A DNA stretch of 64,000 bases from an uncultured bacterium (GTDB lineage Bacteria > Patescibacteriota > Minisyncoccia > Phycocordibacterales > UBA2100). This document shows, piece by piece, positions 10,384 through 57,154 of this stretch (within the stretch, counting starts at the first letter, position 1; every line of letters starts with the position of its first letter). A model generated the notes under the pieces. The model saw only the letters and a program-made list of their open reading frames with translations, was not told where the DNA came from and ran no database searches. The DNA lies in assembly GCA_903824595.1 (NCBI GenBank), contig CAIJXH010000002.1, positions 7,209 through 71,208 on the forward strand, written 5' to 3'. Position numbers and translations under genes: made by a program.

Positions 10384-11553
10384 ATGAGAATTCTTGGCAT
10401 AGAAACATCGTGCGACGAAAGCGGTGTGTGTCTGATCGATGCAAGCGGAATGTGTGGTATAGATTTCAAGTTTGACATTCTCGGCAACGCACTCGCCTCA
10501 CAAGCCGCGCTTCACGCACAGTATGGCGGTGTCTTCCCAAACCTGGCGAAACGCGAACACGCCAAAGCGCTCGTTCCGCTTTTGGAAACAGCGCTGCGGG
10601 ATGCGGGCGCAGCTTCGCTGCGCCCGCATCCCGCAACCGTTCCCGATCTGCACACCATACTGATGCGCGAACCAGAATTACAAGAGCAATTGGAGCCTTT
10701 TTTGAAAACGTATGAAAGACCCGCAATCGATGCAATTGCAGTGACAACAGGACCGGGATTGGAGCCCGCGCTCTGGGTTGGCATCAATTTCGCACGCGCA
10801 CTAGCCATCGCATGGGATATTCCCATCGTTGCCACAAATCATATGGAAGGACACATTATGCTCTCCATAGCGAACGAAACAGGATTGAAGCCATTCGAAT
10901 TTCCCGCACTCGCACTACTCATATCTGGTGGACATACAGAACTGGTGCTTATGCGTGCATTTGGAGAATACGAGATCATCGGACAAACGCGTGACGATGC
11001 CGCGGGCGAAGCGTTTGATAAAGTCGCTCGCCTACTCGGACTTCCCTATCCCGGCGGTCCAGAAATTTCGCGCCTTGCCGCTTCCGCTCGCGCACATCCT
11101 AGAGGCGACACCTCTAGGATTCAGCTGCCGCGACCGATGCTTCGCGAAGATAATTTCGATTTTTCGTTTTCTGGACTGAAGACTGCCGTGCGACGGGTTG
11201 TCGAGGCACACCAGCCGCTGTCGAACGAGATGAAATTGGCAATTGCGCGGGAATTCGAAGACGCCGCAACCGAGGTGATCGTGAGCAAGACGCTCCGAGC
11301 GGCAGAACACTTCTGTACACCCACAATTATCCTCGGTGGTGGTGTTTCCGCCAACACGCACATTAAAGACTCATTCTTCGCCGCGCTGCAAAAAGACAAC
11401 CTTGCCACACTTCTCACCCCTCCTCCTGCCCTCGCCACAGATAACGCACTCATGATCGCTCTCGCAGGCTACACCCATGCTGTCCAAAAAGAATTCGTCG
11501 AGCCACATACACTCAAAGCACAGGGACACGTACAACTCGGATTACAACGATAA
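10384..11553 (+). CDS. tsaD: tRNA N6-adenosine threonylcarbamoyltransferase (Kae1/YgjD family); contains an in-frame palindromic element
   Basis: The protein begins MRILGIETSCDESGV, which is canonical for TsaD, so the start was set at the internal ATG (10384) rather than the overlapping upstream ATG. The 25-bp palindrome at 11096-11120 is translated in frame as HPRGDTSRI, immediately before the conserved LPRPM motif. Confidence 0.9.
   Translation: MRILGIETSCDESGVCLIDASGMCGIDFKFDILGNALASQAALHAQYGGVFPNLAKREHAKALVPLLETALRDAGAASLRPHPATVPDLHTILMREPELQEQLEPFLKTYERPAIDAIAVTTGPGLEPALWVGINFARALAIAWDIPIVATNHMEGHIMLSIANETGLKPFEFPALALLISGGHTELVLMRAFGEYEIIGQTRDDAAGEAFDKVARLLGLPYPGGPEISRLAASARAHPRGDTSRIQLPRPMLREDNFDFSFSGLKTAVRRVVEAHQPLSNEMKLAIAREFEDAATEVIVSKTLRAAEHFCTPTIILGGGVSANTHIKDSFFAALQKDNLATLLTPPPALATDNALMIALAGYTHAVQKEFVEPHTLKAQGHVQLGLQR
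11096..11120. repeat. 25-bp perfect palindromic element, copy 1 (ATCCTAGAGG-CGACA-CCTCTAGGAT), in frame inside tsaD
   Basis: The arms are 10-bp inverted repeats around a 5-nt centre. The element contains two CTAG tetranucleotides and is read as P-R-G-D-T-S-R. Confidence 0.9.
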
Positions 11554-11562
11554 ACACGGGTC

Positions 11563-12240
11563 TCACGGTGTATCGAGCGTACGTTTCGTTTGTTTCCACG
11601 CATCGATAGCAGCGTGATTGCCCGAGAGAAGCACGGGCGGAACGCGATATTTTTTCTTTTTCCATATAAATACTTCCGGACGCGTGTAGACCTCGGGCGA
11701 CGACACGCGACTTGCTTCGAGTGATTCTGCCTTTCCCAAAACACCCGGCACGAAACGCGCCACCGCATCAATCACCGTAGCCGCAGGCAGCTCGCCACCC
11801 GTAAGTACGTACGGACCCATCGACACTTTTTTTGCCTTCAAAATCTTCTCGACACGCGCATCCACACCCTCGTAGTGTCCACAAATGAAAACGATATGTC
11901 TTGTCAACCTAGAGGCGACACCTCTAGGATTTGCTAATTTTTTTGCCATCGCTTCATCAAAAATCGCACCATCGGTAGCAAAGAAAATCTTCTCCGCGCC
12001 GCGCTTCTTCCCTATCGCCTTTTCAGCGGCACGCAGTATCGCATCCGGCTCCAAGACCATCCCGGGTCCACCTCCGTACGGCCGACGATCCACGCGACCA
12101 TAACGATCGTGCGTAAATTTCTTGGGGTCGTAGTATGAAATTTTGATTTTCTTGTTTTTCACCGCGCGCCCAATAATCGAGCTCGCAAGATACGGCTCGA
12201 TTGATTCGGGAAAGAGAGTAATGATGTGAAAATGGATCAT
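11563..12240 (-). CDS. trmD: tRNA (guanine37-N1)-methyltransferase; contains an in-frame palindromic element
   Basis: A 225 aa protein with TrmD signatures (MIHFHIITLFPE..., ...FICGHYEGVD...). The palindrome copy at 11906-11930 is translated as NPRGVASRL just upstream of the conserved CGHYEG motif. Confidence 0.9.
   Translation of the reverse strand: MIHFHIITLFPESIEPYLASSIIGRAVKNKKIKISYYDPKKFTHDRYGRVDRRPYGGGPGMVLEPDAILRAAEKAIGKKRGAEKIFFATDGAIFDEAMAKKLANPRGVASRLTRHIVFICGHYEGVDARVEKILKAKKVSMGPYVLTGGELPAATVIDAVARFVPGVLGKAESLEASRVSSPEVYTRPEVFIWKKKKYRVPPVLLSGNHAAIDAWKQTKRTLDTP
11906..11930. repeat. palindromic element copy 2 (AACCTAGAGG-CGACA-CCTCTAGGAT), in frame inside trmD
   Basis: This copy has the same 10-bp arms with a single mismatch at arm position 2, and is read in the gene orientation as P-R-G-V-A-S-R. 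Confidence 0.9.
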
Positions 12241-12275
12241 ACAAAGGCATCCTAATGCTTTTGCGCCCTCCGCAC

Positions 12276-12313
12276 AACAAAAAGAAAAAGCCGCGCAGAC
12301 GAATCTGCGCGGC
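12276..12313 (-). terminator. rho-independent terminator downstream of the 12343..13257 gene
   Basis: The sequence gccgcgcaga-cgaat-ctgcgcggc forms a 9-10 bp GC-rich stem, and the A-run on the plus strand (aaaaagaaaaa) gives a T-run after the hairpin on the minus strand. Confidence 0.6.
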
Positions 12314-12342
12314 CACCGGAAAAGCCGGATTTTGGTTGAACT

Positions 12343-13257
12343 TCAGCGAACCGGGACGGGGGTGCCGTTCGGAACGCCGACATCGGTCATGAAGAACGTG
12401 CTGCTTCCGCCAGCCTTCGCCGTCATCGCCTGCATCATCATCAGCTTGTAGATGAAGGCGCGTTGACCGGTCGGATCCGCTTTGATGAAGGCGTCGATCT
12501 TCAGCATGGCGTCGGTCAGCTTGTCGGCCGCTTGAGCGGACGCGATGGCACTGATCACTGACGGATCTGGCTTCACATTTGATGCGATCGCAGTGACGAG
12601 AAACAACGGCGAGTTGTTTTCGGCGAGCACCGTGCCGATCATCATCTTCATCTTGTCGGTGAAGCCTTCGGGCGTGCCGTTCTTGGCGATCGCGTCGAAG
12701 ACCGCGTCGACACTGGCGTAGCTCAGGCAGATGTCGCGGATTTTACCGCGCACCTGCTGTTGAACCTGCTGGAAGTAGACCGAAGCCGCGTCGAGGACGA
12801 GGACACGGTCACCGCCGAACTGCTCGTCCTTGGCGCGAACCGGCTTCCCGAGGATTCCCATCCGCAAGATCGCCTCCCGCCCCGCCGGTTTGGTGTGGTC
12901 TGGCATGGCGAAGAGCAGGCGAACATCGAGTGACATCGGCTCGCGCTTCGGCCCGACGATGCAACGATGGTCTTCGTGATCCTTGTCGTTGTTGGGATCG
13001 TTCTGGGCGAACTGCTCCTTGATGGCGAAGCCGCCGCGCTGCAGGAGTACCAGCTTGTTGCCCCAATCAGCGAACCAGCCTTTGGCACCGATGTCGACTT
13101 GGCCGGACTCGTAGATCTTGCCGTCGAACCCGCTCGGCGTGAGAATCATCCCGATCATGTCGGGAGGAATCGCACGCGGTTCCGAAGCAAACGACGAACC
13201 GCCGGTCAGGGTCGCAATCGCGACCGCGAGGGCGGCAACCAGTGAGAATTTACGCAT
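12343..13257 (-). CDS. hypothetical secreted protein (304 aa, N-terminal signal peptide)
   Basis: The N-terminus MRKFSLVAALAVAIATLTGGSSFA is signal-peptide-like, and the gene has markedly GC-rich third codon positions relative to its neighbours. No family was recognised. Confidence 0.55.
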   Translation of the reverse strand: MRKFSLVAALAVAIATLTGGSSFASEPRAIPPDMIGMILTPSGFDGKIYESGQVDIGAKGWFADWGNKLVLLQRGGFAIKEQFAQNDPNNDKDHEDHRCIVGPKREPMSLDVRLLFAMPDHTKPAGREAILRMGILGKPVRAKDEQFGGDRVLVLDAASVYFQQVQQQVRGKIRDICLSYASVDAVFDAIAKNGTPEGFTDKMKMMIGTVLAENNSPLFLVTAIASNVKPDPSVISAIASAQAADKLTDAMLKIDAFIKADPTGQRAFIYKLMMMQAMTAKAGGSSTFFMTDVGVPNGTPVPVR

Positions 13258-13295
13258 TTTCGGTATTTTCCGTTGGATGTGCCTTGCCGGATGGA

Positions 13296-13625
13296 TCAGC
13301 GTTTGATGTTGGCGCCCATGTCGCGGTTGATCGACGACCTGTCAAGCTCTGACCGCGGAATGGCATTGGTTGCATAGCTTGCCGCGTTGACGCAGAAGCC
13401 GGTGATCACCACGAGGGCAACGATGCCAGCTACGCCGTTGACCCAACTTCGGACCGTTGTCGCATCGGAGTCATCCATACCGCCATCCTTGGCCATCTTG
13501 TTGATGAACCAGCGGACGACCAGCAGGACGACGACGATCGTGATGATTGAGCCGATGAGCCACATCATATTGCCTTGAAGACCCTGGAGGAATCCCTGCA
13601 GGGTTAGCGAGGTTGAAGGTGTCAT
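13296..13625 (-). CDS. small two-TM membrane protein (109 aa); topology reminiscent of VirB2/TrbC-type pilins
   Basis: A polar N-terminus is followed by two hydrophobic helices (MMWLIGSIITIVVVLLVV and VAGIVALVVITGFCV) separated by a short charged loop. The pilin assignment is speculative. Confidence 0.4.
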   Translation of the reverse strand: MTPSTSLTLQGFLQGLQGNMMWLIGSIITIVVVLLVVRWFINKMAKDGGMDDSDATTVRSWVNGVAGIVALVVITGFCVNAASYATNAIPRSELDRSSINRDMGANIKR

Positions 13626-13761
13626 AGAACTGGTCCTTTTTGTCTTGAGTCAAAAGGAAACCGGAGCGCCACATGCGCTCACATTCCCGAACAAACCAGA
13701 ACGCCTTTTACACCAAAAAAAGGCTCTCGTCAAATTTTTTTGGATCCCGCTACGCCGGAAA

Positions 13762-14130
13762 TTATTTCAAATCCGCCAAGACATCATCGAGCGACTTTTC
13801 GGTACGTTCACGCTTTTCGTGGGTGTGAACATAGTCGCCGGTATCGGCATCGGGATCGGTTGCACCGGCGGCGGGGCGTTCGCTCCCCTCCGGTTCTTCG
13901 ATCTTGAGGTTGACGCGAGCATCGTTCTTCATACCGACGACACGAAGTACGGTGCGAATCGCCTTGGCGGTCGCGCCCGAACGTCCGATCACCTTGCCCA
14001 TATCGTCTTTATGCACCAAGAGCGTGAGCAGGACTCCCATCTCATCCACAACTCGAGTAATTTTCACATCTTCAGGATGATCTACCAACGCCTTCACGAC
14101 ATATTCCAAAAATTGTTGATCGCGTTCCAT
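13762..14130 (-). CDS. KH-domain RNA-binding protein (YlqC/UPF0109-like)
   Basis: The protein has a KH type II core (VLLTLLVHKDDMGKVIGRSGATAKAIRTVL) and an acidic C-terminal tail, and sits in the conserved position next to rpsP. Confidence 0.75.
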   Translation of the reverse strand: MERDQQFLEYVVKALVDHPEDVKITRVVDEMGVLLTLLVHKDDMGKVIGRSGATAKAIRTVLRVVGMKNDARVNLKIEEPEGSERPAAGATDPDADTGDYVHTHEKRERTEKSLDDVLADLK

Positions 14131-14177
14131 AGAAATCTTACTATCTACTAAATAATAACGATGATAATTATAGCAAA

Positions 14178-14525
14178 CTACGCCGCGACAGGCTCGCTCG
14201 GAACGTCCGCAGAAGGAGTGGTAGGATTTGAAACGGTACTCTCTGCAACGGGCACAGTTTTCTTGGGAAGGACATTGATCTTCTTACCCGCAATAACACC
14301 GGCAGATATCAACATGTTGTGTACCGTATCGGTTGCTTGCGCCCCTTTCCCTAGCCAATACATCACGCGTTCGGCATTGATTACTCTCTCTTTGGTGCGA
14401 GGATTATAGGTGCCGACTTTCTCAATGCATGTACCTGATTTTGCAGAACGGGCACGCTCCAAGACGACAATTCGAAAACTCGGCATGTTTATCCTCCCAA
14501 TCCTCTGCATTCGTATTCGTAACAT
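14178..14525 (-). CDS. rpsP: 30S ribosomal protein S16
   Basis: The N-terminus MLRIRMQRIGRINMPSFRIVVLERARSAKSG...GTYNP matches S16. The start was set at this internal Met because the longer ORF to 14582 would overlap smc. Confidence 0.85.
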   Translation of the reverse strand: MLRIRMQRIGRINMPSFRIVVLERARSAKSGTCIEKVGTYNPRTKERVINAERVMYWLGKGAQATDTVHNMLISAGVIAGKKINVLPKKTVPVAESTVSNPTTPSADVPSEPVAA

Positions 14526-14553
14526 ATGTTGCGCCACTTTACCCTTATTCCTT

Positions 14554-16776: not shown

Positions 16777-16822
16777 TGTATCAAATAGAATGGTTCACGA
16801 ACTTGCCTCGCAATGAATGCGA

Positions 16823-16847
16823 ATCCTAGAGGTGTCGCCTCTAGGAT
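16823..16847. repeat. palindromic element copy 3 (ATCCTAGAGG-TGTCG-CCTCTAGGAT), intergenic between smc start and rnc stop
   Basis: This is the only copy outside coding sequence, and its centre is in the opposite orientation to the tsaD copy. Confidence 0.9.
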
Positions 16848-16859
16848 TTCAAAACAATG

Positions 16860-19444: not shown

Positions 19445-22400
19445 ATGAAAAAATTCATCAATCTTCACACTCATTCTCACTACTCTCTGCTTGAAGCACT
19501 GCCAAACGTAGAGAATCTTGTTGCCGCGGCAAAAGCCGATGGTCAGACCGCGCTCGCACTCACCGACAACGGCAACATGTACGGCGCGATTGATTTCTAC
19601 AAAGAGTGCGTGAAGCAGGAACTGAAACCAATCATCGGCGTCGATTTCTACGTCGCGCCGCGCACGCGTTTCGACAAAGAACACCGAGTGGACGATCGTC
19701 ATTCACGTCTCATTCTGCTCGCACAAAACGATGCGGGATACCACAACCTCATTCGTCTCGTGTCGCAATCGCATCTTGAAGGCTTCCACGATCGTCCGCG
19801 CATCGACCGTGAATTGATCGAGCAATACCGAGAGGGACTGATCGCAATTCTCCCCGCTTTTGCAGGCGCACATACGCACGCCCTCAAGGATGGAAATATC
19901 GATCGCGCGCAAGAAATCGTCGCATGGCACGCGCGCATCTTTTCTGAAAATTGTTATGTCGAGATCACGCGCCACCAGGAAATTCTCGATCACGAGGAGC
20001 TCATGCGGCACATCATTTCTATCGCTCGCAAAGAGAACGTGTCACTCGTCGCCGCGCATGAGACGTATTATCTGAAGCAAGACGATGCCATAGCGCGCGA
20101 GCTTGTCAACTGCATCCGTACAGGTACAACACTCAACCGCGACCTCCTCGACAACCCTCATAATTTCTCGTTTCTTTCGTGTGCGCGCGCCGAAGAACTC
20201 TTCGCCGATCTTCCAGATGCACTTGAGAACAGTGCGAAAATCGCCGAGCAGTGCACACTCAAGCTCACTCTCGGAAAAGCAATCTTTCCCCTTTTTCCTA
20301 TTCCCGATAATTCGACACCAGATCGCGAACTGCGTGCACTTGCCGAAAGCGGTATCGCTGCGCGCGGATTAGCAGACACTCCCGAGCTTCGTACACGCAT
20401 GGACTACGAACTCGGAATCATTGAGAAAAAAGGCTACGCATCGTACTTCCTCATTGTCGCCGATCTTCTACGTCATGCCCGTGAGGTCGGCATCTTTACC
20501 AACACGCGTGGTTCGGCGGCAGGATCGCTCGTTTCCTACCTATGTCACATCACCACCGTTGATCCGATAAAATTCAACATGCCCTTCGAACGTTTCCTCA
20601 ATCCAGAGCGCCCATCGGCTCCAGATATCGATATGGATATCGCCGATACTCGACGCGATGAACTTATAGAATACGCGCGAAGAAAATATGGCACCGACAC
20701 TGTTGTACAGATTGGTACTTTCGGCACCATGATGGCACGCGCCGCGGTACGCGACGTGGCGCGTGCGCTCGGACACTCATATTCGCTCGGCGATGCGATC
20801 GCAAAAATGATTCCATTCGGCAAGCAAGGTTTCCCTGTCACCATCGACTCGTCACTCAAAGAAGTGCCCGAGCTTGCGAGCGCGTATGAAAAAGATCCTG
20901 ATGCGCGCGAAGTACTCGATCTTGCACGCGCGATCGAGGGCAACGTCCGCCATGTGGGCGTGCACGCCGCTGGCGTTATTCTCGCCCCAGGTCCCGTTAC
21001 CGATTATGCGCCCGTACAGCTCGACCCAAAAGGCGGCAAGACCATCACCCAGTACGACATGTATTCCATCGCCGATGAGTACGGCGGCGTCGGACTTCTC
21101 AAATTTGACTTTCTCGGACTCACCAACCTTTCCGTCTTAGCAGATGCCGTCGCTCGCGTAAAAACGCGACTCGGGCAAGACGTTGATCTCGACCGCGTCC
21201 CGCTCGACGACAAAAAAGTGTATGCCATGCTCACGCGCGGCGAGACACTCGGTGTATTCCAGATGGCAGGCAGCGGCATGACCGCATATCTCAAAGACTT
21301 GAAGCCCACGGTGGTACACGATCTCAACGCCATGGTCGCCCTCTATCGCCCCGGCCCCATGGCATTCATCCCCGACTACATCGCGCGCAAAAGAAATCCC
21401 GCGCTCGTCAAATATCTCGACCCTCGCATGGAATCCATACTCAAACCAACCTACGGCATTCTCATCTATCAAGACGACGTCATGATGATCGCCGTGCAGC
21501 TCGCCGGTTATTCATGGGGCGAGGCCGATAAATTCCGCAAAGCTATGGGAAAAAAGATTCCAGAGGAAATGGCAAAACAAAAAGAGCGTTTCGCCACAGG
21601 CTGCATCGAACGCGGCATGAACAAAGAAAAAACAGCCGAACTCTGGCAGCAGATCGAGACATTCGCCGCCTACGGATTCAACAAAGCCCACGCCGCCTCC
21701 TACGGCAGCCTCGCCTACAAAACAGCCTACATGAAAGCCAACTTCCCCGTCGATTACATGGCGGCAGTGCTCACGGCAGACGCGGGCGACGTGGAAAAAA
21801 TTGCCGAGATTGTCGCCGAGTGCAAACGCATGCATATCGCCATCCTCCCACCAGATGTGAATGAAAGTCTGGGGACGTTTACGGTTGTGGGAACAGCTGC
21901 TACAGCGGAGAACCTTGTAAGCGAGGCGACAGACATTGCTGGGGTCTCTCGCAGCGCGTCGGCGCGAGAGGGAGCGCTGGCGCAGCAGCGCCAGACAGCG
22001 ACCCCAGCAATGTCTGTCGCCGAGCGTGCCAACAACGGAGCAATCCGATTCGGTTTATATTCCATAAAAAACTTCGGCACTGGTGTCGCCGACTCCATCA
22101 TCGCAACACGCGAGAAAGGCGGCAGATTCGCCAATCTCGCCGATTTCCTCTCGCGCATCACCGACCCCTCGACTTCGCTCGGGACAAGCAAAAACTTCAA
22201 CAAAAAACAGCTCGAATCCCTCATTCAATCCGGCGCGCTCGACTCACTCGGCGAACGCGGACAGCTTCTCGCCGAGATCGAACTCCTCCTCATCTATCAC
22301 CGCGAACACACCAAATCACCGAACAATCAAATTTCTCTCTTTGGCGCGGCCGCCTTCGGCGGCCGCGCCCCTCTGACCCTACCACCACACGACCCCGCCG

Positions 22401-26996: not shown

Positions 26997-27156
26997 ACGA
27001 ATGTTTCTAAATTGTGATTTCGGCTGCTAAATTACTTATATGTTTATATTATATCAAGATATTTTATGTTGTCAATGGTGTCATCTCGTCCTGAAAAATT
27101 GTTGCGTAGGGATGATACTTCTCATCCCTACGCAGGGTATGACGCGTCCATGACAA

Positions 27157-27609: not shown

Positions 27610-27734
27610 TGCTTCCCTCCACTTCCTCAGGATTTCTTGCCTACACAAATGTATACGCAAGAAGCCACAAAGAATCAAGAAAATTTTTGGGCAGACTATG
27701 AACACGCCGTGTGTTCATAGTCTGCCCCAGTAGA

Positions 27735-34266: not shown

Positions 34267-34408
34267 AAAATTATTTACCACTTTTTCCCACTGCAATGGA
34301 GTATATACCACTATACCCCACCGCAAGACAGTTATCCACACTTCGACTCGCTCCATGGATATTCTCAATAAAAAATCCGGCTTGGCGCACTACCAAGCCG
34401 GATAACAC

Positions 34409-34627: not shown

Positions 34628-35024
34628 GCTCATCTCCTTCTGTGAAGGAGGAAAATTTACAAACGACCGTGAGGTCGTCTAAAATTTTTACTCCCTTCAA
34701 CTTCTCGAGCCCACGAAACTGCTCGTGGGCCAACCCCCAAAACATGTCTCCTGGGCGGATTATTTCCGCCATTCTCTCTGCCATATATGCCCTCATGCGG
34801 GCATCTTGTGCATGCCCGAGCATATGATGCTCGGAAAACGTCTCGGCATCGAGACGCAATTGGGACGCCCTTCTCCTTGTCTCCGCAACCTCCCGATGAA
34901 ACATCATCAGGAGCATTTCGGCATGATGAAGTCGTCCTACGACGACTTCATCACTTCCAATCTCAATGGCGACTTTTTGTTCCAGAAAGAATCCGTCGTC
35001 CATCCCTTTGTGCCTTTTTTCCAC
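34557..35024 (-). CDS. hypothetical protein with a LysM-like peptidoglycan-binding motif
   Basis: The stretch ...IIRPGDMFWGLAHEQF...KILDDLTVV resembles the LysM GDTLWxIA core. The ORF overlaps the downstream small ORF by about 70 nt, so either the call or the stop context is uncertain. Confidence 0.4.
   Translation of the reverse strand: MEKRHKGMDDGFFLEQKVAIEIGSDEVVVGRLHHAEMLLMMFHREVAETRRRASQLRLDAETFSEHHMLGHAQDARMRAYMAERMAEIIRPGDMFWGLAHEQFRGLEKLKGVKILDDLTVVCKFSSFTEGDEHESRKIRRVCGRTLSKFLESPCI
34634..34650. promoter_or_regulatory. perfect 7-bp/3-nt-loop hairpin CTCCTTC-TGT-GAAGGAG that contains the RBS of the 34409..34627 gene
   Basis: The Shine-Dalgarno sequence is sequestered in a palindrome, and the site lies inside the 3' end of the upstream LysM-like ORF. 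Confidence 0.35.
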
Positions 35025-35121
35025 TGAACATTTCCGGCCAATCCGGAAACGCAGTGCGGCATTTGTAACACGATGCGCGCCTATCTGTCAAACATGTCGT
35101 GATGTGGTACTTTTGTCGGAC

Positions 35122-36738
35122 ATGCTGACGATCCTGAAGCACGCCACCGATGAAGCGCTTGCCGACATACGCAATGAAATGCGTGTGCGCCAAACGACGA
35201 AGTTCATTCTGCTATTTTCTATGGGCAGCCAGTTTGATCACCTCATCGTGCGGCAGCTCGCCACGCTCGGCATCTACTGCGTCGTCGCCGACCCGTCGAG
35301 CGTGACGGCGGATGATGTGAAAAAAGCCGCTCCGGCGGGCATTATCGTCTCCGGTGGCCCTGCATCGGTGTACAACGAGCCGCCGCCGTTTGACGGCGCG
35401 ATTTTCGATCTCGGCATTCCCACCTTCGGCATCTGTCTCGGATTTCAGATGTTGGCACAGCGTGTGGGCGCGAGCGTCACCCCGCAAACGAAACGTGAAT
35501 TCGGCGTGCACACCTTCCGCGCAGCCGGCAACGATCCGCTTTTCGATGGAGTAGCGCGCGAGACGCAGGTGCTCGAGAGCCATGGCGATGCGGTCAATGC
35601 CGATGCGTCGTTTGACATACTAGGCACCACCGAGAATGCTCCCGTCGCCGCAGGTCGGCACAAGCATCTCTGGGGCGTGCAGTTCCACCCAGAAGTTACC
35701 GATTCACTGGAAGGCATGAAGATGTTTGAAAATTTCTGCGTGAAGATATGCGGCATCACCGACCGCTTCCCCGCACACAGCGTCGCCGAACAAAAAATCG
35801 CCGCGCTCAAAAAGCAGGTCGCCGGCAAAAAAGTCTTGATCGCTCTTTCCGGCGGCTCCGATTCCTCCGTCGTTGCCTATCTCCTCAAAGCCGCTCTCTC
35901 GCAAGAAAATCCGAGAGGTGACACCTCTCGGATGACAGGGATATATATTCGTGGCATAGACAGACCAGATGATGAGGCGTACGTGCAAAAATACTTCGGC
36001 ACTCAGGACTGGATTGAGGTGAAGATTTGCGATGCGACCGATCGTTTCCTCGAGGTATTGAGAGGAAAACTCACCATGCCCGAAAAACGCCTCGCCATGC
36101 GCGGCGTGTACAAAAACGTACTCGAAACCGAGATCGAAAAGATGGGTGCCGATTTCATCGCGCAAGGCACACTCTACACCGATCTCGTGGAAAGCGGGCA
36201 CGGGCACGACACCGGCGCTCGGCGCGCGCAGATAAAATTGCATCACAACACTGATCTCGGATTTTCCGTCCCCGAGCTCTCTCCGCTCGAGACCGAGGTG
36301 AAAGATTCCGCGCGATCGATCGGTCGCGACATCGGAGTGCCCGAAGATTTGCTCATCCGCCACCCATTCCCCGGACCGGGCTTAGTGGTGCGCATCGAGG
36401 GCGAGGTCAACGCCGAGACGCTCGCGATCGCCCGCGCCGCCGACGGGATCTACGTGGAAGAGCTGCGCGCGGCGGGGTTGTACCCAAGCGTGTGGCAAGC
36501 AGGTGCCACGCTCACCCGCTCCGAGCACTCGGTATCCAAAGGCGACGACGCGGGCACCGGGCACGTGCTCGCGCTCTGGGCAGTGTGGAGTGTGAATGGA
36601 TTTACTGCGCGTTTTGCCGAGCTTCCCTACGATTTCCTCGCCCGCGTATCGCGCCGCATCACCAACGAAATCCGCGCCGTCGGCGCCGTCGTCTACCGCA
36701 TCTCCGACAAACCGCCCGCGACGATCGAATGGGGGTGA
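35122..36738 (+). CDS. guaA: GMP synthase (glutamine-hydrolysing); contains an in-frame palindromic element
   Basis: A GATase-1 domain (GICLGFQ, HPE) and an ATP-PPase domain (SGGSDSSV) are present. The start was set at MLTILKH to match GuaA N-termini. The palindrome at 35909-35933 is translated as ENPRGDTSRM inside the PP-loop domain. Confidence 0.9.
   Translation: MLTILKHATDEALADIRNEMRVRQTTKFILLFSMGSQFDHLIVRQLATLGIYCVVADPSSVTADDVKKAAPAGIIVSGGPASVYNEPPPFDGAIFDLGIPTFGICLGFQMLAQRVGASVTPQTKREFGVHTFRAAGNDPLFDGVARETQVLESHGDAVNADASFDILGTTENAPVAAGRHKHLWGVQFHPEVTDSLEGMKMFENFCVKICGITDRFPAHSVAEQKIAALKKQVAGKKVLIALSGGSDSSVVAYLLKAALSQENPRGDTSRMTGIYIRGIDRPDDEAYVQKYFGTQDWIEVKICDATDRFLEVLRGKLTMPEKRLAMRGVYKNVLETEIEKMGADFIAQGTLYTDLVESGHGHDTGARRAQIKLHHNTDLGFSVPELSPLETEVKDSARSIGRDIGVPEDLLIRHPFPGPGLVVRIEGEVNAETLAIARAADGIYVEELRAAGLYPSVWQAGATLTRSEHSVSKGDDAGTGHVLALWAVWSVNGFTARFAELPYDFLARVSRRITNEIRAVGAVVYRISDKPPATIEWG
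35909..35933. repeat. palindromic element copy 4, variant ATCCGAGAGG-TGACA-CCTCTCGGAT, in frame inside guaA
   Basis: Both arms carry complementary changes (T>G and A>C) relative to the other copies, so perfect pairing is preserved; this is a compensatory double substitution. Confidence 0.9.
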
Positions 36739-50090: not shown

Positions 50091-50112
50091 CCGATAAAGA
50101 TGGGTGATCGCG

Positions 50113-50673: not shown

Positions 50674-50712
50674 CGTGGTATCCTACGCCATCCACCCTAT
50701 ATCTTCAAGAAT

Positions 50713-51735
50713 TTATGTACTAACCGTATACCTTCCGTCAGGAAGACGCACAAATGTACTCGCCTGGAGATTGACAGCAATCGTCGCATCTTTGACATAC
50801 CGCTCACGCTTCACACGTTCAATAATATCAACGCGCGACAAAGGACCTTCGCGTTCCAAAACACTCGCAATCACGTCACGAACAATACCCGGCTGATATC
50901 CCCACTCTTTCAAAGCATACAATCCACGCCCCACAAGCACGAAACGCGCATCTTTGATGAGTTCATTGTGTGTGGTCGCCGCATGAGCTTCGCGCTTGAA
51001 AAGATTTTTGATACTTTTGGCAACTTCGGAGAAATGCATCGGTGAACCATGTCGCTTGAGTGTCAGATACGCAAAATCACGTGTGTTTTTGATGCGTACA
51101 TGCGGAGATTCCATCCTGCCCCATTCCCCGAGCGGATTTTTGCCGACTCGTTTAGAAATCTGCAACCAGCGAGCCAATACGTCTGGTTGACGATTTTTTA
51201 TCTCGTGTTTTTTCAGTAAATCAGAGAACAATTCAAGAATCTCCTGCTCTGGCACCAGACGAGTTGGCTCGATCGCTTCATAGAGATTTGCGAGAGCGCG
51301 TTCAACCTGTTCGGCAAGCGTGTCATCAACATGCCAGCGGGTTTTGAAATCGGCGTCCTCGCGACGATCAGAAAAATGATGCCCAACCGTGAGGAGAAAG
51401 ATGATATGCGCGCGATCCGCAGACGATTTAGGCACCTCATCAAGGATCGTTTCCTCGGATACTACGCCACCTAGATTTTGAATTGCTTTCTTGAGATCGC
51501 CCCAAGCGCTTGAGTGGGTTTCGTATGCGTCAGAATCTCGCACCGAAGAAATACCATGACTCTCTATTTGACGGATACGTTCACGCGTTATGTTATACTC
51601 CTTACCGATTGAATCAAGTGTGCGTCGCTCCCCGCGTGGAGTGAGCCCGAAGCGATCAATAAGAACCTTTCGGGATCTCTCTGGAAGACCTGAGAGCAAA
51701 TCACGACTTACAGAACGTGGTGAAAAAGTAAGCAT
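50713..51735 (-). CDS. hypothetical protein with an N-terminal sigma-70 region-4-like HTH
   Basis: The stretch ...RTLDSIGKEYNITRERIRQIESHGI... resembles sigma-70 region 4 and ECF sigma HTHs, while the remaining ~250 aa are unassigned. Confidence 0.45.
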   Translation of the reverse strand: MLTFSPRSVSRDLLSGLPERSRKVLIDRFGLTPRGERRTLDSIGKEYNITRERIRQIESHGISSVRDSDAYETHSSAWGDLKKAIQNLGGVVSEETILDEVPKSSADRAHIIFLLTVGHHFSDRREDADFKTRWHVDDTLAEQVERALANLYEAIEPTRLVPEQEILELFSDLLKKHEIKNRQPDVLARWLQISKRVGKNPLGEWGRMESPHVRIKNTRDFAYLTLKRHGSPMHFSEVAKSIKNLFKREAHAATTHNELIKDARFVLVGRGLYALKEWGYQPGIVRDVIASVLEREGPLSRVDIIERVKRERYVKDATIAVNLQASTFVRLPDGRYTVST

Positions 51736-51813
51736 ATGAAATAAAATTGACTTATTTGTTGACTTGTTCCCTTGTTATAGCAACCATCCTTTCATCTGTC
51801 AAATATCTCCTGG

Positions 51814-51883
51814 CTGGGGGACTTGGGCTCGAACCAAGATTGAGAGCTTCAAAGGCTCCTGTCCTACCGTTAGACGATCCCCC
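51814..51883 (-). tRNA. tRNA-Gln (anticodon TTG); CCA encoded at 51811-51813
   Basis: The reverse complement TGGGGGATCGTCTAACGGTAGGACAGGAGCCTTTGAAGCTCTCAATCTTGGTTCGAGCCCAAGTCCCCCAGCCA shows a U1-A72 pair (typical of bacterial tRNA-Gln) and anticodon loop CTTTGAA. Confidence 0.8.
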
Positions 51884-51943
51884 AAACGAACGCCTGTATT
51901 ATAGCCGTGCTTCTGCAGAGACGCCACTGGCACCCTACTTGCG

Positions 51944-53242
51944 TCAATATGAAAATCCTTCTGAATGAATGTGGCGCGTAGGGACCCCCGCGGCAACAAG
52001 TTCGTTTGTTATGCCGATGACCATACCCGGTGGACCACAGAGGAAAACATCGCGATCAAACACATCGGGACATGTTTTGATTATCTCCGATGCATCAATC
52101 TTTTGCGCGGGAGTCACATCCGACACATACGTATGCACCTGAACTCCCGCGTGCATGAGTTCGTGTATAAGTGGAGTATCGGAACGCATCTTGTTTGCCA
52201 CAAAAGCGACCGCATCAGCAGGACGCGCCAGATCTCGGATCATGGCAACAATTGGCGTTATACCAATTCCACCCGCCACAAAACAAAATCTCCCCGTTTC
52301 TGCGAGATTGCACGTAAAGTGCCCCATCGGGCCATCAATGATAACTCGCGTCCCTGGAACAAGATTCTCGATGGTATTGGTAAAATCACCAAGTTTTTTT
52401 ATCGACACACGCAGGTCGATGCCGTTATACGGTTGAGAAAAAGAGAACGGATGATGCGAACATAATCCGCGCTGCAAAAACATGAAGTGCGCATACTGCC
52501 CAGCCTTGAAGCGAAATGATCTCATGTGCCTGCCCGTGATATAAATTGATACTACGGTATCCGACTCACGCACGACACGTGCGATACGAAAATCATGCCA
52601 CACCACATACCACAACGGACGAAACACGCGATACCAGAGAAACACACATCCGACCAGAAGCGCGAGAGTTGTCCAATATGTGCGAGCGAGAGAATCCGCC
52701 ATATCACCCGATGAAATTTGATGCATGAACGAAAACGCTATCGCGCCATAAAGAAACAAATGAAACGCATACCACAGCTCGTACCGAAACAATGTCCTCA
52801 CAGCTCGTATAGACATGATCCCGATCGCGAGTATGACAACCGCTCCCACGAGCGCATACACAACATTGTCCCACGTGGTGATAAACACACTACATTGTTC
52901 AAACACACCACGATGATCACGCGCCGCATAACCACCCACAAGCAAACATACGTGTATCACGATCATCCCGAGAATGGAAAAACCACATAGTCGATGCATG
53001 CGCGGCGCAGAGAAACTTGGGAACGCATCAAGTAGCGGCATGCGACTTGCGAGGAGAACCTGACAAAAGACAAGGAGCATAAGCGCAAGTCCCGCAAGTC
53101 TCCCGAATGCAATTGCGATACTCGCTCCAAGACCAGACACGAGCATTGATTCGGATCCCGCAAGCCAGAAGACAATCGTCGCAACCACCACCGCTATGAG
53201 AGCGCCTATCGTTATCAGCGCGACGTAGTCATTTCGTGACAT
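51944..53242 (-). CDS. NOX-family ferric reductase-like oxidoreductase (bis-heme TM domain + FAD + NAD(P)H-binding domains)
   Basis: A 432 aa protein with six TM helices and two His pairs at bis-heme spacing (HRLCGFSILGMIVIH and HLFLYGAIAFSFMH). It carries the FAD motif HPFSFS and NAD(P)H motifs GGIGITP and CGPPGM. Confidence 0.7.
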   Translation of the reverse strand: MSRNDYVALITIGALIAVVVATIVFWLAGSESMLVSGLGASIAIAFGRLAGLALMLLVFCQVLLASRMPLLDAFPSFSAPRMHRLCGFSILGMIVIHVCLLVGGYAARDHRGVFEQCSVFITTWDNVVYALVGAVVILAIGIMSIRAVRTLFRYELWYAFHLFLYGAIAFSFMHQISSGDMADSLARTYWTTLALLVGCVFLWYRVFRPLWYVVWHDFRIARVVRESDTVVSIYITGRHMRSFRFKAGQYAHFMFLQRGLCSHHPFSFSQPYNGIDLRVSIKKLGDFTNTIENLVPGTRVIIDGPMGHFTCNLAETGRFCFVAGGIGITPIVAMIRDLARPADAVAFVANKMRSDTPLIHELMHAGVQVHTYVSDVTPAQKIDASEIIKTCPDVFDRDVFLCGPPGMVIGITNELVAAGVPTRHIHSEGFSY

Positions 53243-53663
53243 TGCCTATATAGAAAGAAGAAAGCTCCTGATCAACTCCTGGTCTGGCGTGCGCACGAAC
53301 ACGCGCAAAAACTGCCGACGCATCTTTACCACACTCGTCAACAATAGCCTGCGATCCTCCGGGATGCACCGATTCAAACCGTGTCATGTCGTAGACTTTC
53401 CCCTCAACGATCAGCCAACAATCGCCAGCAGTATCGTGCTGTGCCACACGCGTACGCGTGATATCAGAAGACGTGTGCGTTGTGGTTTGTATCACAGGTG
53501 CTTTTGCCACAGACGTTGTTGCAGACACACTCGTTGTCGTAGGAGCGACGGGAGCAAACATCTTCGACGCATACGCAATCACTCCAACGCCCGCAACAGC
53601 AAACAACATCGCTCCCGTGAATACAACACGACTCATATGCGGCATAGTGTACCACATTCCCAT
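53229..53663 (-). CDS. membrane-anchored cytochrome b5-like heme-binding domain protein
   Basis: An N-terminal TM segment and a Thr-rich linker precede the Cyt-b5 motif (...HDTAGDCWLIVEGKVYDMTRFESVHPGGSQAIVDECGKDAS...). The gene overlaps the NOX-like gene start by 14 nt. Confidence 0.6.
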   Translation of the reverse strand: MGMWYTMPHMSRVVFTGAMLFAVAGVGVIAYASKMFAPVAPTTTSVSATTSVAKAPVIQTTTHTSSDITRTRVAQHDTAGDCWLIVEGKVYDMTRFESVHPGGSQAIVDECGKDASAVFARVRAHARPGVDQELSSFYIGNVTK

Positions 53664-53680
53664 GCTACTATGTCAGCTGT

Positions 53681-55138
53681 ATGCGGCACTCTTTTGTTCC
53701 CCCGATAGGCGCGACACTGATCATCTTTGCGATGATGTGCAGTGGCGCAGTCTACGGACATGTGCATGCCAATACCCCAAGCATCACCTCATTGGTGGCA
53801 ACCCCACCATATGTACCCAATAACTACACAACCACCCTGTCGTGGAACACCACAGGAGTCACGGGACAAAAGCTGATGTTCGATTGTGTGCTCGGCGTGA
53901 CCGCGAAAAACACCGATGGAACATCATTTCCATGTGGTACCCGTCAATCGGTGGGCGCGCAAGCCGCATCAGACTCATTCGGACTTTCTTTCACCAATGT
54001 AACGGGCGGCACACGAGATGTTCACCTGACGCTCTATCCTTCCATCGACACGAGTACCGATTACGACACAGGAGCAGCAAGCACCGTTATATCCGTGCAA
54101 CCATCTTTTCAACCAATTACCAACATCTCGATTACACCGCCCGCAACATCGACGACGCCCTCTGGGGCACCGATCACCCTGTCATGGACAGGTGTCGATG
54201 CGAGCGGCGTCAATGTACAAATCGCCTGTATCGAGGGTGTGAAAGTGTTCGCTTCGCCAACGGCGACCGATCCGCTACCATGCGGACTACCAGCATTCTC
54301 CAGCGACCTGCCCATCTCGGGAAATGTTACAGTCTACGCAACCAACACAACTTCCGAGCCACGAACTCTTACATTCACTGTCTTACCAGAGATAGGAGGA
54401 GCCACCTATGACGCGACACGATCACTTTCCACCAACGCAACGATTGCACCCGTTCCTATACCGGGAAAACCAATCGCGACATCTCTCTTCGCATCGGCAA
54501 TGCGATTACTCTCCAATGATATTCTTGCGATTTCGTGGTCAACCGCCAGTAGCACGGGAGCAAATCTCACCTTTTCATGCGTAGACGGACTGACCGTATA
54601 TGTCGCCAGTTCCACCGAGCGTATTGCTCTTCCGTGCGGAACGACGGCTTTCGCCTCGCCACTTCCTGCAGTGGGCAGCACAACAATTTCTATATCCAAC
54701 AGCAACTCGTACGGCATCTCGATGACGATCACCATTCTTCCGCAAGACAGTGCTGGCGCATATTATCAAACAGCGTCGCGCTCACTCACCACTACCATCT
54801 ATCCAGCGGGTGCAAACTTTGCTGCAAACCAGATTCAACCAACCACAACACCCGCAATACATACTGAACCAACGACACACGTGCGCCATTCATATATATT
54901 TTCTCGATCGCTTCAAAGAGGATCTCGCAATGTCGACGTACAAGCGTTGCAAACATTTTTGGCACTCGACGCATCTATCTATCCAGAAGGAGCAGTGTCG
55001 GGATACTACGGTCTTGCAACTGAACGCGCCGTCAAGCGTTTTCAGAAGAAATACCTACTCGCCACACAGAGCGATTCTGGATTTGGGTGCGTGGGACCAA
55101 AAACACGAACCGTCCTCAACACGCTTACGACACCGTAG
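53681..55138 (+). CDS. secreted protein with Ig-like repeats and a C-terminal peptidoglycan-binding (PG_binding_1-like) domain
   Basis: A signal peptide and repeated beta-rich modules are followed by a C-terminus ...RGSRNVDVQALQTFLALDASIYPEGAVSGYYGLATERAVKRFQKKYLL that resembles the PGRP/PG-binding three-helix domain. Confidence 0.55.
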   Translation: MRHSFVPPIGATLIIFAMMCSGAVYGHVHANTPSITSLVATPPYVPNNYTTTLSWNTTGVTGQKLMFDCVLGVTAKNTDGTSFPCGTRQSVGAQAASDSFGLSFTNVTGGTRDVHLTLYPSIDTSTDYDTGAASTVISVQPSFQPITNISITPPATSTTPSGAPITLSWTGVDASGVNVQIACIEGVKVFASPTATDPLPCGLPAFSSDLPISGNVTVYATNTTSEPRTLTFTVLPEIGGATYDATRSLSTNATIAPVPIPGKPIATSLFASAMRLLSNDILAISWSTASSTGANLTFSCVDGLTVYVASSTERIALPCGTTAFASPLPAVGSTTISISNSNSYGISMTITILPQDSAGAYYQTASRSLTTTIYPAGANFAANQIQPTTTPAIHTEPTTHVRHSYIFSRSLQRGSRNVDVQALQTFLALDASIYPEGAVSGYYGLATERAVKRFQKKYLLATQSDSGFGCVGPKTRTVLNTLTTP

Positions 55139-56177
55139 TCGATCCACACACGTCTATCACCGCAAGTTCGAGCGGTAATTGAGGTATCGCGGCATACGCC
55201 ATGGTCGCATATGCATCAAGCAACGCGCGAAGCGTTTCGGAATGTATGCCTGGTTCTTTTGATAATTCTCTTACCATCGCAATGTCCGATTCAGATAGTT
55301 CGCGCACATATCGCTCAATGAGATCGGGAGCAAAACGCATGAGAAGCACGGCGCGCAATCGGTGAATAAGCAATTTTGTAAGTACGCGCGCGTCGGTATG
55401 TGATGCAACGACTGCGTCAATCGCGGCAAGCGCACCCGATACGTCTTTCTTTGCAATTGCCGAAAGGATGACTCGAATCGATTCTCCGCGCGGCGCGCCA
55501 GAGACCATCTCGACATCAGAAAGATTGATATGTGTACCTGATGATGCGGCGAGTACTTTTTGCAAAAGCGAAAGCGCATCGCGGAACGACCCTTCGGCGA
55601 TCAGCGCAATGAGTTCAGCAGCGGATCGCTCGAGTGTGTACGCTTCTTTTTTTGCAATGTCACCAACGATATCAGCAAGCATCGCGCGCGTTGGCTGCTT
55701 GAACGAATACACTTCACAACGCGACTGGATCGTGTCTGGAACCTTATCGCGTTCGGTTGTCGCCATCACAAACAAACAATGTGCAGGCGGCTCTTCGAGC
55801 GTTTTCAAAAATGCATTCCATGCGTCTTTGGTGAGCATGTGTGCTTCATCGATGATGTATAGTTTGTAAGGCGATTCAAACGGGAGTGCGAGCACCCCTT
55901 CGCGCAATTCACGAATATCGTCGATGCCTCTATTGGAAGCCGCATCAATCTCATATAAATCACGATCAGTGACTCCGATTTCCTTCGCTAGAATACGCGC
56001 AACACTTGTCTTCCCCGTGCCACGACCTCCGCAGAAGAGGTAGGCATGCGCAAATTTTTTGTTCTCGATCGCCCGCCTCAACACGTCCGTAACATGCTGT
56101 TGTCCGCGTACCGCGTCAAAATCACTCGGGCGATAGGTACGATACAGTGTCTGATGCCGCTTTTCTTCCTTTTTCAT
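55125..56177 (-). CDS. dnaX: DNA polymerase III subunit gamma/tau (short form)
   Basis: The clamp-loader motifs are present: GGRGTGKTS (Walker A), DEAHML (Walker B) and the SRC motif (IQSRCEVYSFK). The protein is 350 aa. Confidence 0.85.
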   Translation of the reverse strand: MKKEEKRHQTLYRTYRPSDFDAVRGQQHVTDVLRRAIENKKFAHAYLFCGGRGTGKTSVARILAKEIGVTDRDLYEIDAASNRGIDDIRELREGVLALPFESPYKLYIIDEAHMLTKDAWNAFLKTLEEPPAHCLFVMATTERDKVPDTIQSRCEVYSFKQPTRAMLADIVGDIAKKEAYTLERSAAELIALIAEGSFRDALSLLQKVLAASSGTHINLSDVEMVSGAPRGESIRVILSAIAKKDVSGALAAIDAVVASHTDARVLTKLLIHRLRAVLLMRFAPDLIERYVRELSESDIAMVRELSKEPGIHSETLRALLDAYATMAYAAIPQLPLELAVIDVCGSTTVS

Positions 56178-57154
56178 GCGGGAAGTATAGCAGACACAAG
56201 CACGCGGCGCGCCTCAGCACTCGTATCGGTATTCATAAGACCAACACGCAATTCTCGAGCTCCATCCCATCCAGAAATATATGCTTTGAAGTGCTTTTTC
56301 ATCACCGCATACGATGTCGTCTCGGAAAGTAATTGATCAAACAGCATGAGATGTTCTATCAGCGCGGACACACGCTCTTGCGGCGCGGGAGGATGCACTC
56401 GATCCGCGAACAACCACGGATTGCCGTAAATCGCGCGACCAAGCATGACTCCGTCGCAGCCTGTTGCGTCAGCTTTTGCTCGCGCATCCGAAATGTCGCG
56501 CACATCGCCATTGCCAAGAATTTTTGTCATCCTAGAGGTGTCGCCTCTAGGATTTTGGATAGCGTTGCGGATGGCGACCGCCTTTGCAACGAATTCCCAG
56601 CGCGCAGGCACGTCGGAAAGCTCGTTGCGCGTGCGAGCATGTATGGTTATCGCCGCAGGTTCTTCTGCCAACAATTCCGAAAGCCACGTATCAAGCTCAT
56701 CGCGCGCATACCCGACGCGTGTCTTTACCGACACGGGAAGACCAGACTTTTTTGCGGCACTAATGAGTGAGCGAGCACGTGCCGTATCTTTGATCAGAGC
56801 AGCACCACTTCTGCTTTTCCCAATCGCACGATCAGGACATCCCATATTGATATCTATGCCGTCAAACCCCATATCCCGCACGATATGTGCAGCATGTTCC
56901 ATACGAGCAGGATCGGAAGTAAAGAGCTGCGCGATGATGGGATGTTCGCTATCACTATAGAGAAGTTTTTTACGGAGCTTGCGTTGTCCAGCGTCGTCGG
57001 CATACAACAACCCATCGGCAGAAGTAAATTCTGTAAAAAACACGTCGGGCTTGCCATGGCGAGCAATGAGGGCGCGAAACGCGGCATCGGTAACATCCTC
57101 CATGGGAGCGAGGACGAAAAATGGTTTCTTGAGCGTTTGCCACACGTTGCGCAT
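56174..57154 (-). CDS. dus: tRNA-dihydrouridine synthase; contains an in-frame palindromic element
   Basis: A TIM-barrel Dus protein (LAPMEDVTDAAFR, DINMGCP). The palindrome at 56529-56553 is translated as QNPRGDTSRM. Confidence 0.8.
   Translation of the reverse strand: MRNVWQTLKKPFFVLAPMEDVTDAAFRALIARHGKPDVFFTEFTSADGLLYADDAGQRKLRKKLLYSDSEHPIIAQLFTSDPARMEHAAHIVRDMGFDGIDINMGCPDRAIGKSRSGAALIKDTARARSLISAAKKSGLPVSVKTRVGYARDELDTWLSELLAEEPAAITIHARTRNELSDVPARWEFVAKAVAIRNAIQNPRGDTSRMTKILGNGDVRDISDARAKADATGCDGVMLGRAIYGNPWLFADRVHPPAPQERVSALIEHLMLFDQLLSETTSYAVMKKHFKAYISGWDGARELRVGLMNTDTSAEARRVLVSAILPA
56529..56553. repeat. palindromic element copy 5 (ATCCTAGAGG-TGTCG-CCTCTAGGAT), in frame inside dus
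   Basis: This is identical to the intergenic copy 3. In the gene orientation it reads P-R-G-D-T-S-R. Confidence 0.9.

Follow-up and report, generated by a model that had tools for sequence, protein, structure and literature searches.

We analysed a 64,000-nt stretch of DNA from an uncultured bacterium of the Patescibacteria (the window, in what follows) for a family of short palindromes that lie in frame within housekeeping genes. These elements are probably a repetitive palindrome (REP) family of Kaiserbacteria-like Patescibacteria of the candidate phyla radiation (CPR), and their cognate enzyme would be a Y1/HUH single-stranded DNA (ssDNA) transposase resembling the REP-associated tyrosine transposases (RAYTs). 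An earlier note on this DNA had listed five palindromes, and a scan of the window with the consensus pattern ATCCKAGAGG-N5-CCTCTMGGAT recovers all of them, four as exact matches (11096, 16823, 35909 and 56529) and the fifth, at 11906 (AACC...GGAT), with one mismatch at an outer position. Dinucleotide-preserving shuffles of the window contained no match to the consensus, giving a chance expectation of 0. The copies and their host genes are as follows.

10381..11553, plus strand: tsaD host gene (Pfam PF00814, E 4.7e-74)
11096..11120: probable REP-type palindrome ATCCTAGAGG-CGACA-CCTCTAGGAT in tsaD, read as HPRGDTSRI
11563..12240, minus strand: trmD host gene (Pfam PF01746, E 9e-40; PDB homologues, E 1e-44)
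11906..11930, read on the minus strand: probable REP-type palindrome in trmD, NPRGVASRL
16822..16848: intergenic 27-bp palindrome AATCC...GGATT, 13 nt past the rnc stop and 47 nt ahead of the smc start (minus strand)
35119..36738, plus strand: guaA host gene (Pfam GATase, GMP_synt_C and NAD_synthase; start codon approximate)
35909..35933: variant copy ATCCGAGAGG-TGACA-CCTCTCGGAT in guaA, read as NPRGDTSRM
56174..57154, minus strand: dus host gene (Pfam PF01207, E 1.8e-56)
56529..56553, read on the minus strand: probable REP-type palindrome in dus, NPRGDTSRM

The reading frames of tsaD, trmD, guaA and dus run uninterrupted despite the palindromes, and the listing of open reading frames (ORFs) and the Pfam matches agree on the in-frame location that the earlier note had described. 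Its account of the centre as CGACA or the complement is correct for the other copies and fails for guaA, where the centre is TGACA; similarly, the peptides it gave as NPRGDTSR(I/M) and NPRGVASRL are those of TrmD, GuaA and Dus, while TsaD begins with His in place of Asn. The guaA copy forms a full 12-1-12 palindrome in which all three frames are free of stops. Three assemblies from different samples match the window with 0 mismatches across 11063-12740, the span that holds the tsaD and trmD copies, and this agreement between independent assemblies excludes an assembly artefact. The coding fraction of the window is ~0.90, and unbiased insertion with subsequent selection would be expected to leave four of five copies within genes. 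GC skew is negative throughout the window. The intergenic copy between rnc and smc does not look like an intrinsic terminator, as no T-run lies behind the palindrome on the transcribed strand.

Each copy consists of 10-bp arms around a 5-nt centre, and the arms can often be extended to 11-12 bp. The calculated DNA hairpins have energies of -9 to -21 kcal/mol (z -7 to -10), with -9.1 kcal/mol (z -7.3) for the tsaD copy and -11.2 kcal/mol for the guaA copy. The paired T>G/A>C change noticed earlier in guaA is real and leaves the stem intact; it is synonymous on both sides (CCT>CCG, AGG>CGG), and protein-level selection is therefore not involved. The compensatory maintenance of the stem that had been proposed from this pair extends to the family. 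All nine copies with two arm differences from the consensus have them at paired, complementary positions; one copy has two compensated pairs and another has three. Among 19 distinct sequences 97.9% of cells pair, both sides have changed in five of the ten pairs (16 cells), and none of 500 shuffles reached these values. The three loop-adjacent pairs, AGG/CCT, are invariant, and arm changes left unpaired are found mostly at the outermost positions. Part of the copy set was found with a pattern that forces perfect arms, and the compensation argument thus rests mainly on copies adjacent to a RAYT gene or found through a host protein. Two of the latter, L083 and L084, were located through the Dus protein and not through the DNA pattern, which removes the ascertainment bias; the L083 copy (ACCAGCGAGG-CGACG-CCTCGCTGGT) has four compensated pairs and is a perfect 12-1-12 palindrome, and the L084 copy has one. 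The copy in the TsaD gene of L075 (ATCCTGGAGG...CCTCCAGGAT) sits inside a 33-bp perfect palindrome. Even the CTAG within the stem varies, to CGAG, CAAG, CTGG or AGCG. At L017 copies within one genome differ while each is internally perfect, so that maintenance of the stem would act on each copy separately, via selection or hairpin-templated correction.

A hairpin of this kind could also act in the mRNA, as a stabiliser, an RNase III site, a terminator or a translational pause. The RNA hairpin is indeed stable, at -15 to -17 kcal/mol (z ~-6.5), and REPs have been reported as RNA elements in other systems (PMC3733652). Against such a role, the covarying pairs are nearly all Watson-Crick, with a single G.U among 190 cells, which argues that the constraint lies on the DNA hairpin, with pairing on both strands, and not at the mRNA level. 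The copies are not followed by a T-run, and an Rfam scan of the window returned six tRNAs and no match at the elements. Copies also occur in two frames, in both orientations and beside a transposase gene, and we regard a function at the RNA level as highly improbable.

The link between the palindromes and an enzyme comes from relatives of the source organism. At L019 two copies lie 671 bp apart around a 210-aa ORF, and at L064, on a contig of 31% G+C, two copies surround a homologous ORF; both proteins match Pfam Y1_Tnp (IS200-like transposase). With a relaxed scan included, the palindrome is found on both sides of the gene at L019, L064, L017, L025, L045 and L063, and a single flank is visible at L009, L040, L044 and L059. 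By tblastn, homologues lie 2-25 bp from a copy at no fewer than ten distinct loci. The 5' copy is placed 11-23 nt upstream of the ATG, and the 3' copy at three loci contains the TAG with which the gene ends. In an alignment of nine homologues, all of which match Y1_Tnp, H83 and H85 of the HUH motif (HxHLL) and Y143 (YIHLNP) are invariant. A PDB profile search with the RAYT alignment placed ISDra2 TnpA at the top, weakly, and the best PDB match of one member is E. coli TnpArep (4ER8), again weakly, at E 0.24. It is because the same palindrome flanks a Y1/HUH gene on both sides that we place the elements among REP-RAYT systems.

Several further observations concern these enzyme loci. A -10-like box (TACAAT, TACTAT or TATAGT) lies between the 5' palindrome and the RAYT start codon at L019 6660-6710, L045 1390-1440, L040 234-290 and L017 3156-3172; the 5' palindrome possibly overlaps the transposase promoter and could have a role in its regulation. 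At L064 (1640-2452) the arms flank the RAYT homologue right after a tRNA-like 3' end (GGTTCGAATCC...). As the arms are identical in hosts of 31% to 57% G+C, there is a hint of horizontal spread of the REPtron, the transposase gene with its repeats. More distant RAYT-like homologues are flanked by other palindromes, namely CCGATGAGG-TCAGA-CCTCATCGG at L015 6830-7620, GGCAAGGCCTTGCC at L074 4300-5140 and ATATCGGGATTT-CGT-AAATCCCGATAT at L022 6800-7550; these CPR lineages thus contain several distinct pairings of enzyme and repeat.

The unit that enters genes was defined from 48 copies on contigs with a G+C content of 45% or more. In 33 of these the palindrome is longer by one or more base pairs in each arm, and an A precedes ATCC in 77% of the flanks, so the usual unit is a 27-bp palindrome of nine codons, AATCC...GGATT. 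Since 25 bp is not divisible by three, 27 bp is the length that serves as an in-frame unit; a simple model of 25-bp insertion was ruled out for this reason and by the variation of the junctions among sites. The frame used by each of the four genic copies of the window is CCT AGA GGN NNN NCC TCT AGG. The palindromic arms map this frame onto itself on the opposite strand, which keeps it open in both orientations. The frame ATC CTA GAG is open in the sense direction only, and the third frame (TCC TAG) carries two TAG stops, as had been seen before. The earlier statement that the same frame is always used describes the four copies of the window correctly; in the wider family the copies of TsaD in L075, RecR and PurD use the other open frame (ILExxPLG). 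Against these three sites stand ten in the NPRGxxSR frame (TsaD, TrmD, GuaA, Dus, ArgS, MnmA, AtpD, PheT, RecO and a LamG-domain protein), and the TAG-bearing frame is used at 0 of the 13 gene sites, all with hosts confirmed by Pfam. This 10:3 usage (one-sided binomial p ~0.046 versus equal use) is a preference without being a rule. It most likely arises because the hydrophilic and turn-prone N-P-R-G-x-x-S-R is better tolerated than the hydrophobic ILExxPLG, and a nucleotide-specific target may be an alternative source of the preference. Behind the frame-0 copy of RecR (L004 330-354) lies a partial repeat of its own peptide (ILEATPLGFTPLGF), probably left by a short tandem duplication that involved the right arm.

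The frames and the symmetry of the element also bear on whether it might be a dyad site for a dimeric DNA-binding protein (an operator, a restriction-modification or defence site, or a DNA-uptake signal), or whether the peptide NPRGD..SR might itself be selected. The dyad symmetry is perfect, and CTAG, which had been called avoided, does occur 51 times in the window against 247 expected, with eight of the 51 inside the elements; this strong avoidance, shared by other 4-bp palindromes, suggests restriction pressure. One orientation of the element encodes Arg-Gly-Asp (PRGDTS at 11096-11120, 35909-35933 and 56529-56553) and the other RGV, although RGD in cytoplasmic enzymes is probably without meaning. 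Such protein sites, however, conserve their sequence, whereas the arms here change in compensated pairs, and the density in the window is low at ~1 per 13 kb. The same DNA also lies outside genes, is read in a second frame and occurs in either orientation; the peptides contain RGD, RGV, RGN or RGL, and no single one is conserved. We hold a protein site or a selected peptide to be extremely improbable. A DNA uptake sequence was ruled out by the same density, set against ~1 per kb, and by the covariation of the arms.

The inserts had been suggested to lie in surface loops, and helix-to-strand loops were found for all four host proteins, by AlphaFold models built on orthologue alignments (TrmD and Dus) or by alignment (TsaD and GuaA). 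In the TrmD model the insert forms loop 104-113 between helix 96-103 and strand 114-119, with a predicted local distance difference test score (pLDDT) below 50 at 108-111. In the Dus model (pLDDT 91) it forms loop 198-207 between helix 184-197 and strand 208-212; helix-to-strand loops of this kind in triosephosphate isomerase (TIM) barrels are on the face away from the catalytic end. The sites in TsaD and GuaA follow a helix and stand ahead of a conserved strand or motif.

Comparison with orthologues identifies alleles that are empty at these sites. For TrmD, the segment is 17 aa long (DEAMAKKLAKKKDILFI) in 77 of 106 orthologues and 25 aa long in the window, and solved TrmD homologues show an 8-residue gap at the insert. 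The closest TrmD relative, P0242 (85% identity), is empty, and comparison at the DNA level gives a 24-nt gain (TCCTAGAGGTGTCGCCTCTAGGTT) in the window; at the same place L020 has gained 27 nt with the centre in the opposite orientation. In further lineages TrmD is longer by six to ten residues, which read PRGVASR, PRGLASR or PRGDTSR, or has inserts unrelated to these. Such unrelated inserts include KPARGNGRGKK, CASQTCTS... and GKYGSQTAV (P0243-P0263, P0284 and P0287; L082 4001-4675), of which CASQTCT could be encoded by another hairpin (TGTGCAAGTCAGACTTGCACA), and the TrmD loop seems to be a general landing place for inserts. For Dus, 95 of 116 orthologues are empty (a 20-aa segment), as is the closest relative at 73% identity; a segment of 27-28 aa marks 12 filled alleles, and nine belong to a 24-aa class. 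The latter carries a different 27-nt near-palindrome, CAATGTCAAGGCGACGCCTTGCCATTG (QCQGDALPL, for example L078 1155-2120), which has only the GGCGACGCC centre in common with the element studied here. On a neighbour-joining tree that is roughly resolved only, the filled Dus alleles are scattered. The TsaD loop from YPGGPEISRLA to PRPM measures 16 aa in the window against a modal 14 among 120 orthologues, a net gain of ~+6 nt or 2-3 codons. This loop in L075 also contains the element, as a variant offset by 2 nt and read in the other open frame (ILEATPPGF); the closest TsaD relative, P0002, has NREASPLGF there. The GuaA loop after the helix of the SGGSDS P-loop comprises 25 aa in the window versus 20 in P0374, P0371 and P0364, a net gain of ~+15 nt over empty alleles, and in P0361, the nearest representative at 72% identity, the corresponding residues are NPKGVASGI. 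For the closest relative genome (sample ERZ1426832, proteins P0002 and P0122), both the frame-0 TsaD copy and the empty Dus site are known at the protein level only.

That the extra codons could be ancestral sequence shared with distant taxa, a possibility raised at the outset, is contradicted by the empty majority in TrmD and Dus, and as judged from these alignments the inserts are best read as insertions. They are not the clean additions of eight to nine codons that had been supposed, since some codons of the native loop have been displaced in tsaD, guaA and dus; the dus insert occupies 30 nt in place of the 6 nt of empty alleles, and the net gain at this site is +21/+24 nt. The history of these sites therefore has more than one step. 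A search for target-site duplications, as the earlier note had advised, found none at the element flanks nor in comparisons of empty with filled alleles, and analysis of the flanks of the 48 copies found no conserved target motif beyond A/T-rich flanks.

The same alleles can be read as old relics, with one ancient insertion per loop, vertical inheritance and many losses, and with a RAYT that makes no new sites; the stem would then be kept by hairpin-templated repair (quasi-palindrome correction) and the copies homogenised by short-patch gene conversion. Identical loops are indeed occupied in many lineages, the filled Dus alleles all carry an upstream CAA (Gln) that is absent from empty alleles, and a His downstream of the site tends to recur among TrmD alleles that have an insert of any kind, which suggests a clade. 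Decayed forms such as NPKGVASGI and the 24-aa Dus class fit great age, as does the individual compensation of each copy, even where those of L017 differ. Yet the closest relatives of TrmD and Dus of the window are empty, and at one site the junctions, net lengths, orientation of the centre and even the frame vary by lineage, as in trmD (+24 here, +27 with a flipped centre in L020) and in tsaD (frame 2 here, frame 0 with a 2-nt offset in L075). Moreover, only precise excision could have returned 80-90% of lineages to an identical LGSK or KKKD by loss. An origin of all copies as relics is thus unlikely in our judgement.

In a scan of one genome per species, exact copies occurred only in Patescibacteria, the carriers being several Candidatus Kaiserbacteria, an Adlerbacteria, a Paceibacterota and others; with metagenome scans added, ~50 distinct copies remained after removal of duplicates. 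The records with copies in these scans did not include the genome of the window itself, and the named closest relatives of its TsaD, Dus and TrmD are mostly Kaiserbacteria or Paceibacterota. The centre is CGACA in four of the five window copies, TAACA in all three copies of JACRFH01 and CGACG in eight of the nine copies in the MFLU01 contigs examined. Of the 72 pairs of copies from one genome, 47 have identical centres where 22 would be expected (p<5e-5, permutation), and within the single host gene dus it is CGACA, CGACG, TAACA or CGATG depending on the genome. As the centres track the genome and not the host gene, the copies in one genome share a recent source; this implies spread within the genome or conversion between copies, and not inert relics. 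A scan of viral contigs gave two matches on low-GC contigs, judged unrelated, and the matches on human-gut contigs L029-L032 (AAAAATCCGAGAGG-AAATG-CCTCTCGGATTCTT) and several other low-GC metagenome matches are apparently unrelated hairpins, which were omitted from the family statistics.

We propose a model for the elements that most reasonably fits these observations. The RAYT would bind the hairpin formed by the palindrome in ssDNA, presumably at replication forks, and would cut and rejoin beside it, so that a unit of ~27 nt is copied or moved with no duplication of the target site; flanks without direct repeats are as expected for Y1 transposases. Because the genome is ~90% coding, most insertions would strike genes, and the survivors would be whole-codon additions, outside the TAG frame, in tolerant helix-to-strand surface loops. 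As few such loops permit survival, the same ones (Dus, TrmD, TsaD, RecO and GuaA) would be reoccupied in different lineages. Both mobility and recognition of the repeat by the enzyme are inferred here, indirectly, from the patchy occurrence of filled and empty alleles and from the genome-specific centres. A stronger version, in which the RAYT-REP system is currently active and aimed at a few loops of essential proteins, where it would time and again insert, flip, replace and remove cassettes of ~9 codons at identical positions of Dus, TrmD, TsaD, RecO and GuaA in independent lineages, is doubtful, though it would have consequences: an ssDNA transposase would be a routine editor of the loops of housekeeping proteins, and public metagenomes would record natural gain and loss of REPs that is elsewhere hard to observe.

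A number of points weigh against the placement among REP-RAYT systems. The sole NCBIfam match of the L019 and L064 proteins is REP_Tyr_transpos, at 44 and 23 bits against a cut-off of 80; some members pass the Pfam Y1_Tnp threshold marginally, and the PDB matches of the RAYT homologues are weak (E 0.07-0.24). No RAYT gene was found in the 64-kb window by tblastn or with a profile of the nine homologues (nothing below E 0.06), so that for the source organism the link to the enzyme is drawn from its relatives. The canonical unpaired GTAG (or CGTC) tag is absent, with only an A-rich/T-rich palindromic extension at the flanks. In the DNA examined the number of exact copies per genome, three to nine, is low. 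Filled and empty alleles do not differ by a clean insertion, be it the exchange at dus or the 2-3 codons at tsaD, and extra steps or another mechanism are therefore needed at these sites. Finally, the documented activity of the E. coli RAYT is cleavage and rejoining in vitro only (PMC3733652). Even with these points taken together, the REP-RAYT placement remains the reading we consider probable.

REP-RAYT systems (REPtrons, REPINs) have been described in E. coli, Pseudomonas and Stenotrophomonas (Nunvar 2010, PMC2817692; Bertels & Rainey 2011, PMC3116915). The present family resembles them in its short GC-containing palindrome dispersed in the genome, in the lack of target-site duplication, in a Y1/HUH transposase gene flanked by its own repeat, in a separate repeat sequence for each enzyme lineage and in lineage-specific variants of the repeat. 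It departs from them in a fully symmetric palindrome with an invariant AGG/CCT core beside the loop, in that REPIN doublets were not seen, and in a mostly intragenic rather than extragenic location (four of five window copies, 13 gene sites across the family); furthermore, its host is a CPR bacterium and its enzyme falls under the NCBIfam cut-off for RAYTs. Intragenic in-frame REPs with GTAG/CGTC are known from Opitutus terrae, Xanthomonas recB and R. conorii RPE-4/6 (Di Nocera et al. 2013, PMC3733652). Like our elements, these lie in frame in known genes, in presumed tolerant linkers or loops, sometimes at the same site in related species, and sometimes provide the TAG stop of a neighbouring ORF. 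In those genomes, however, most copies lie outside genes, and the intragenic ones are often dimers that encode 20-30 aa, whereas here single units of nine codons make up four of the five window copies, and the same Dus, TrmD and TsaD loops are filled in many lineages with genome-specific centres. With this precedent and the REP-RAYT architecture in relatives, the earlier opinion that the element could not be placed in any described family no longer holds.

The parallel to Rickettsia palindromic elements (RPEs) that had been drawn for the family does hold as regards in-frame insertion. These elements (RPE-1 and relatives) were reportedly described by Ogata et al. in 2000 (cited in PMC3733652). 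RPE-1 is ~100-150 bp long, encodes 30-50 aa, occurs in Rickettsiales and is not known to have an associated transposase. In both cases a reduced genome carries palindromes in frame within essential genes, the encoded residues lie at the surface and the host proteins are presumed to be functional, but the present element measures 25-27 bp, resides in a CPR host, lacks a CGTC end and has no sequence similarity to RPEs. The IS200/IS605 elements (IS608, ISDra2) recognise ssDNA hairpins and cause no target duplication; they move the transposase gene itself, have distinct hairpins at the left and right ends and use a specific target tetra- or pentanucleotide. Their transposases and the enzyme considered here belong to the same superfamily, whereas here the short hairpin alone is dispersed and the same palindrome stands on both flanks of the gene. 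A miniature inverted-repeat transposable element was ruled out, as the whole element is a single hairpin of 25-27 bp with no flanking duplication.

In the literature searched we found nothing relevant linking REP, RAYT or REPIN with CPR, Patescibacteria or Kaiserbacteria. The REP family itself is previously undescribed, while intragenic in-frame REPs as such have been known since 2013. If the placement is correct, it extends REP-RAYT systems to the CPR and illustrates the fate of REPs where there is almost no intergenic space, namely as in-frame cassettes of nine codons in the loops of essential enzymes. Metagenomes offer many matched alleles at the same sites, filled, empty, flipped or decayed, and thus a data set unusually well suited to the questions of whether, and in what way, REPs move, how their perfect stems are kept (selection versus hairpin-templated correction) and whether targets are chosen specifically. 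The cassettes would also explain odd insertions of 7-9 residues in CPR housekeeping proteins, which is relevant to gene callers and aligners.

The window contains other palindromes that appear separate from this family. An unrelated perfect hairpin of 41 bp, TGCGGGATGCGGGCGCAGC-TTC-GCTGCGCCCGCATCCCGCA, lies within tsaD at 10595-10635, with an RNA fold of -43 kcal/mol; it encodes LRDAGAASLRPHPA in a variable linker whose length is unchanged relative to close orthologues, and it is a singleton in all DNA examined. With arms of 9 bp or longer and loops of 7 nt or shorter, perfect hairpins number 21 in the window and 0-4 in its shuffles; examples are 4402-4426, 4813-4844, 8401-8423, 22343-22369, 27103-27134, 27689-27727, 34375-34403, 34924-34953 and 60691-60715. 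Several lie within long ORFs and most are unique in sequence, and the excess may reflect terminators together with a general tendency of the genome to make or keep perfect palindromes. Among 4-bp palindromes TTAA is the most strongly avoided (9 versus 228 expected, a ratio of 0.04), followed by GGCC (0.15), CTAG (0.21) and CCGG (0.43), which suggests restriction-modification pressure, while CGCG and GCGC are over-represented 2.6-2.8-fold.

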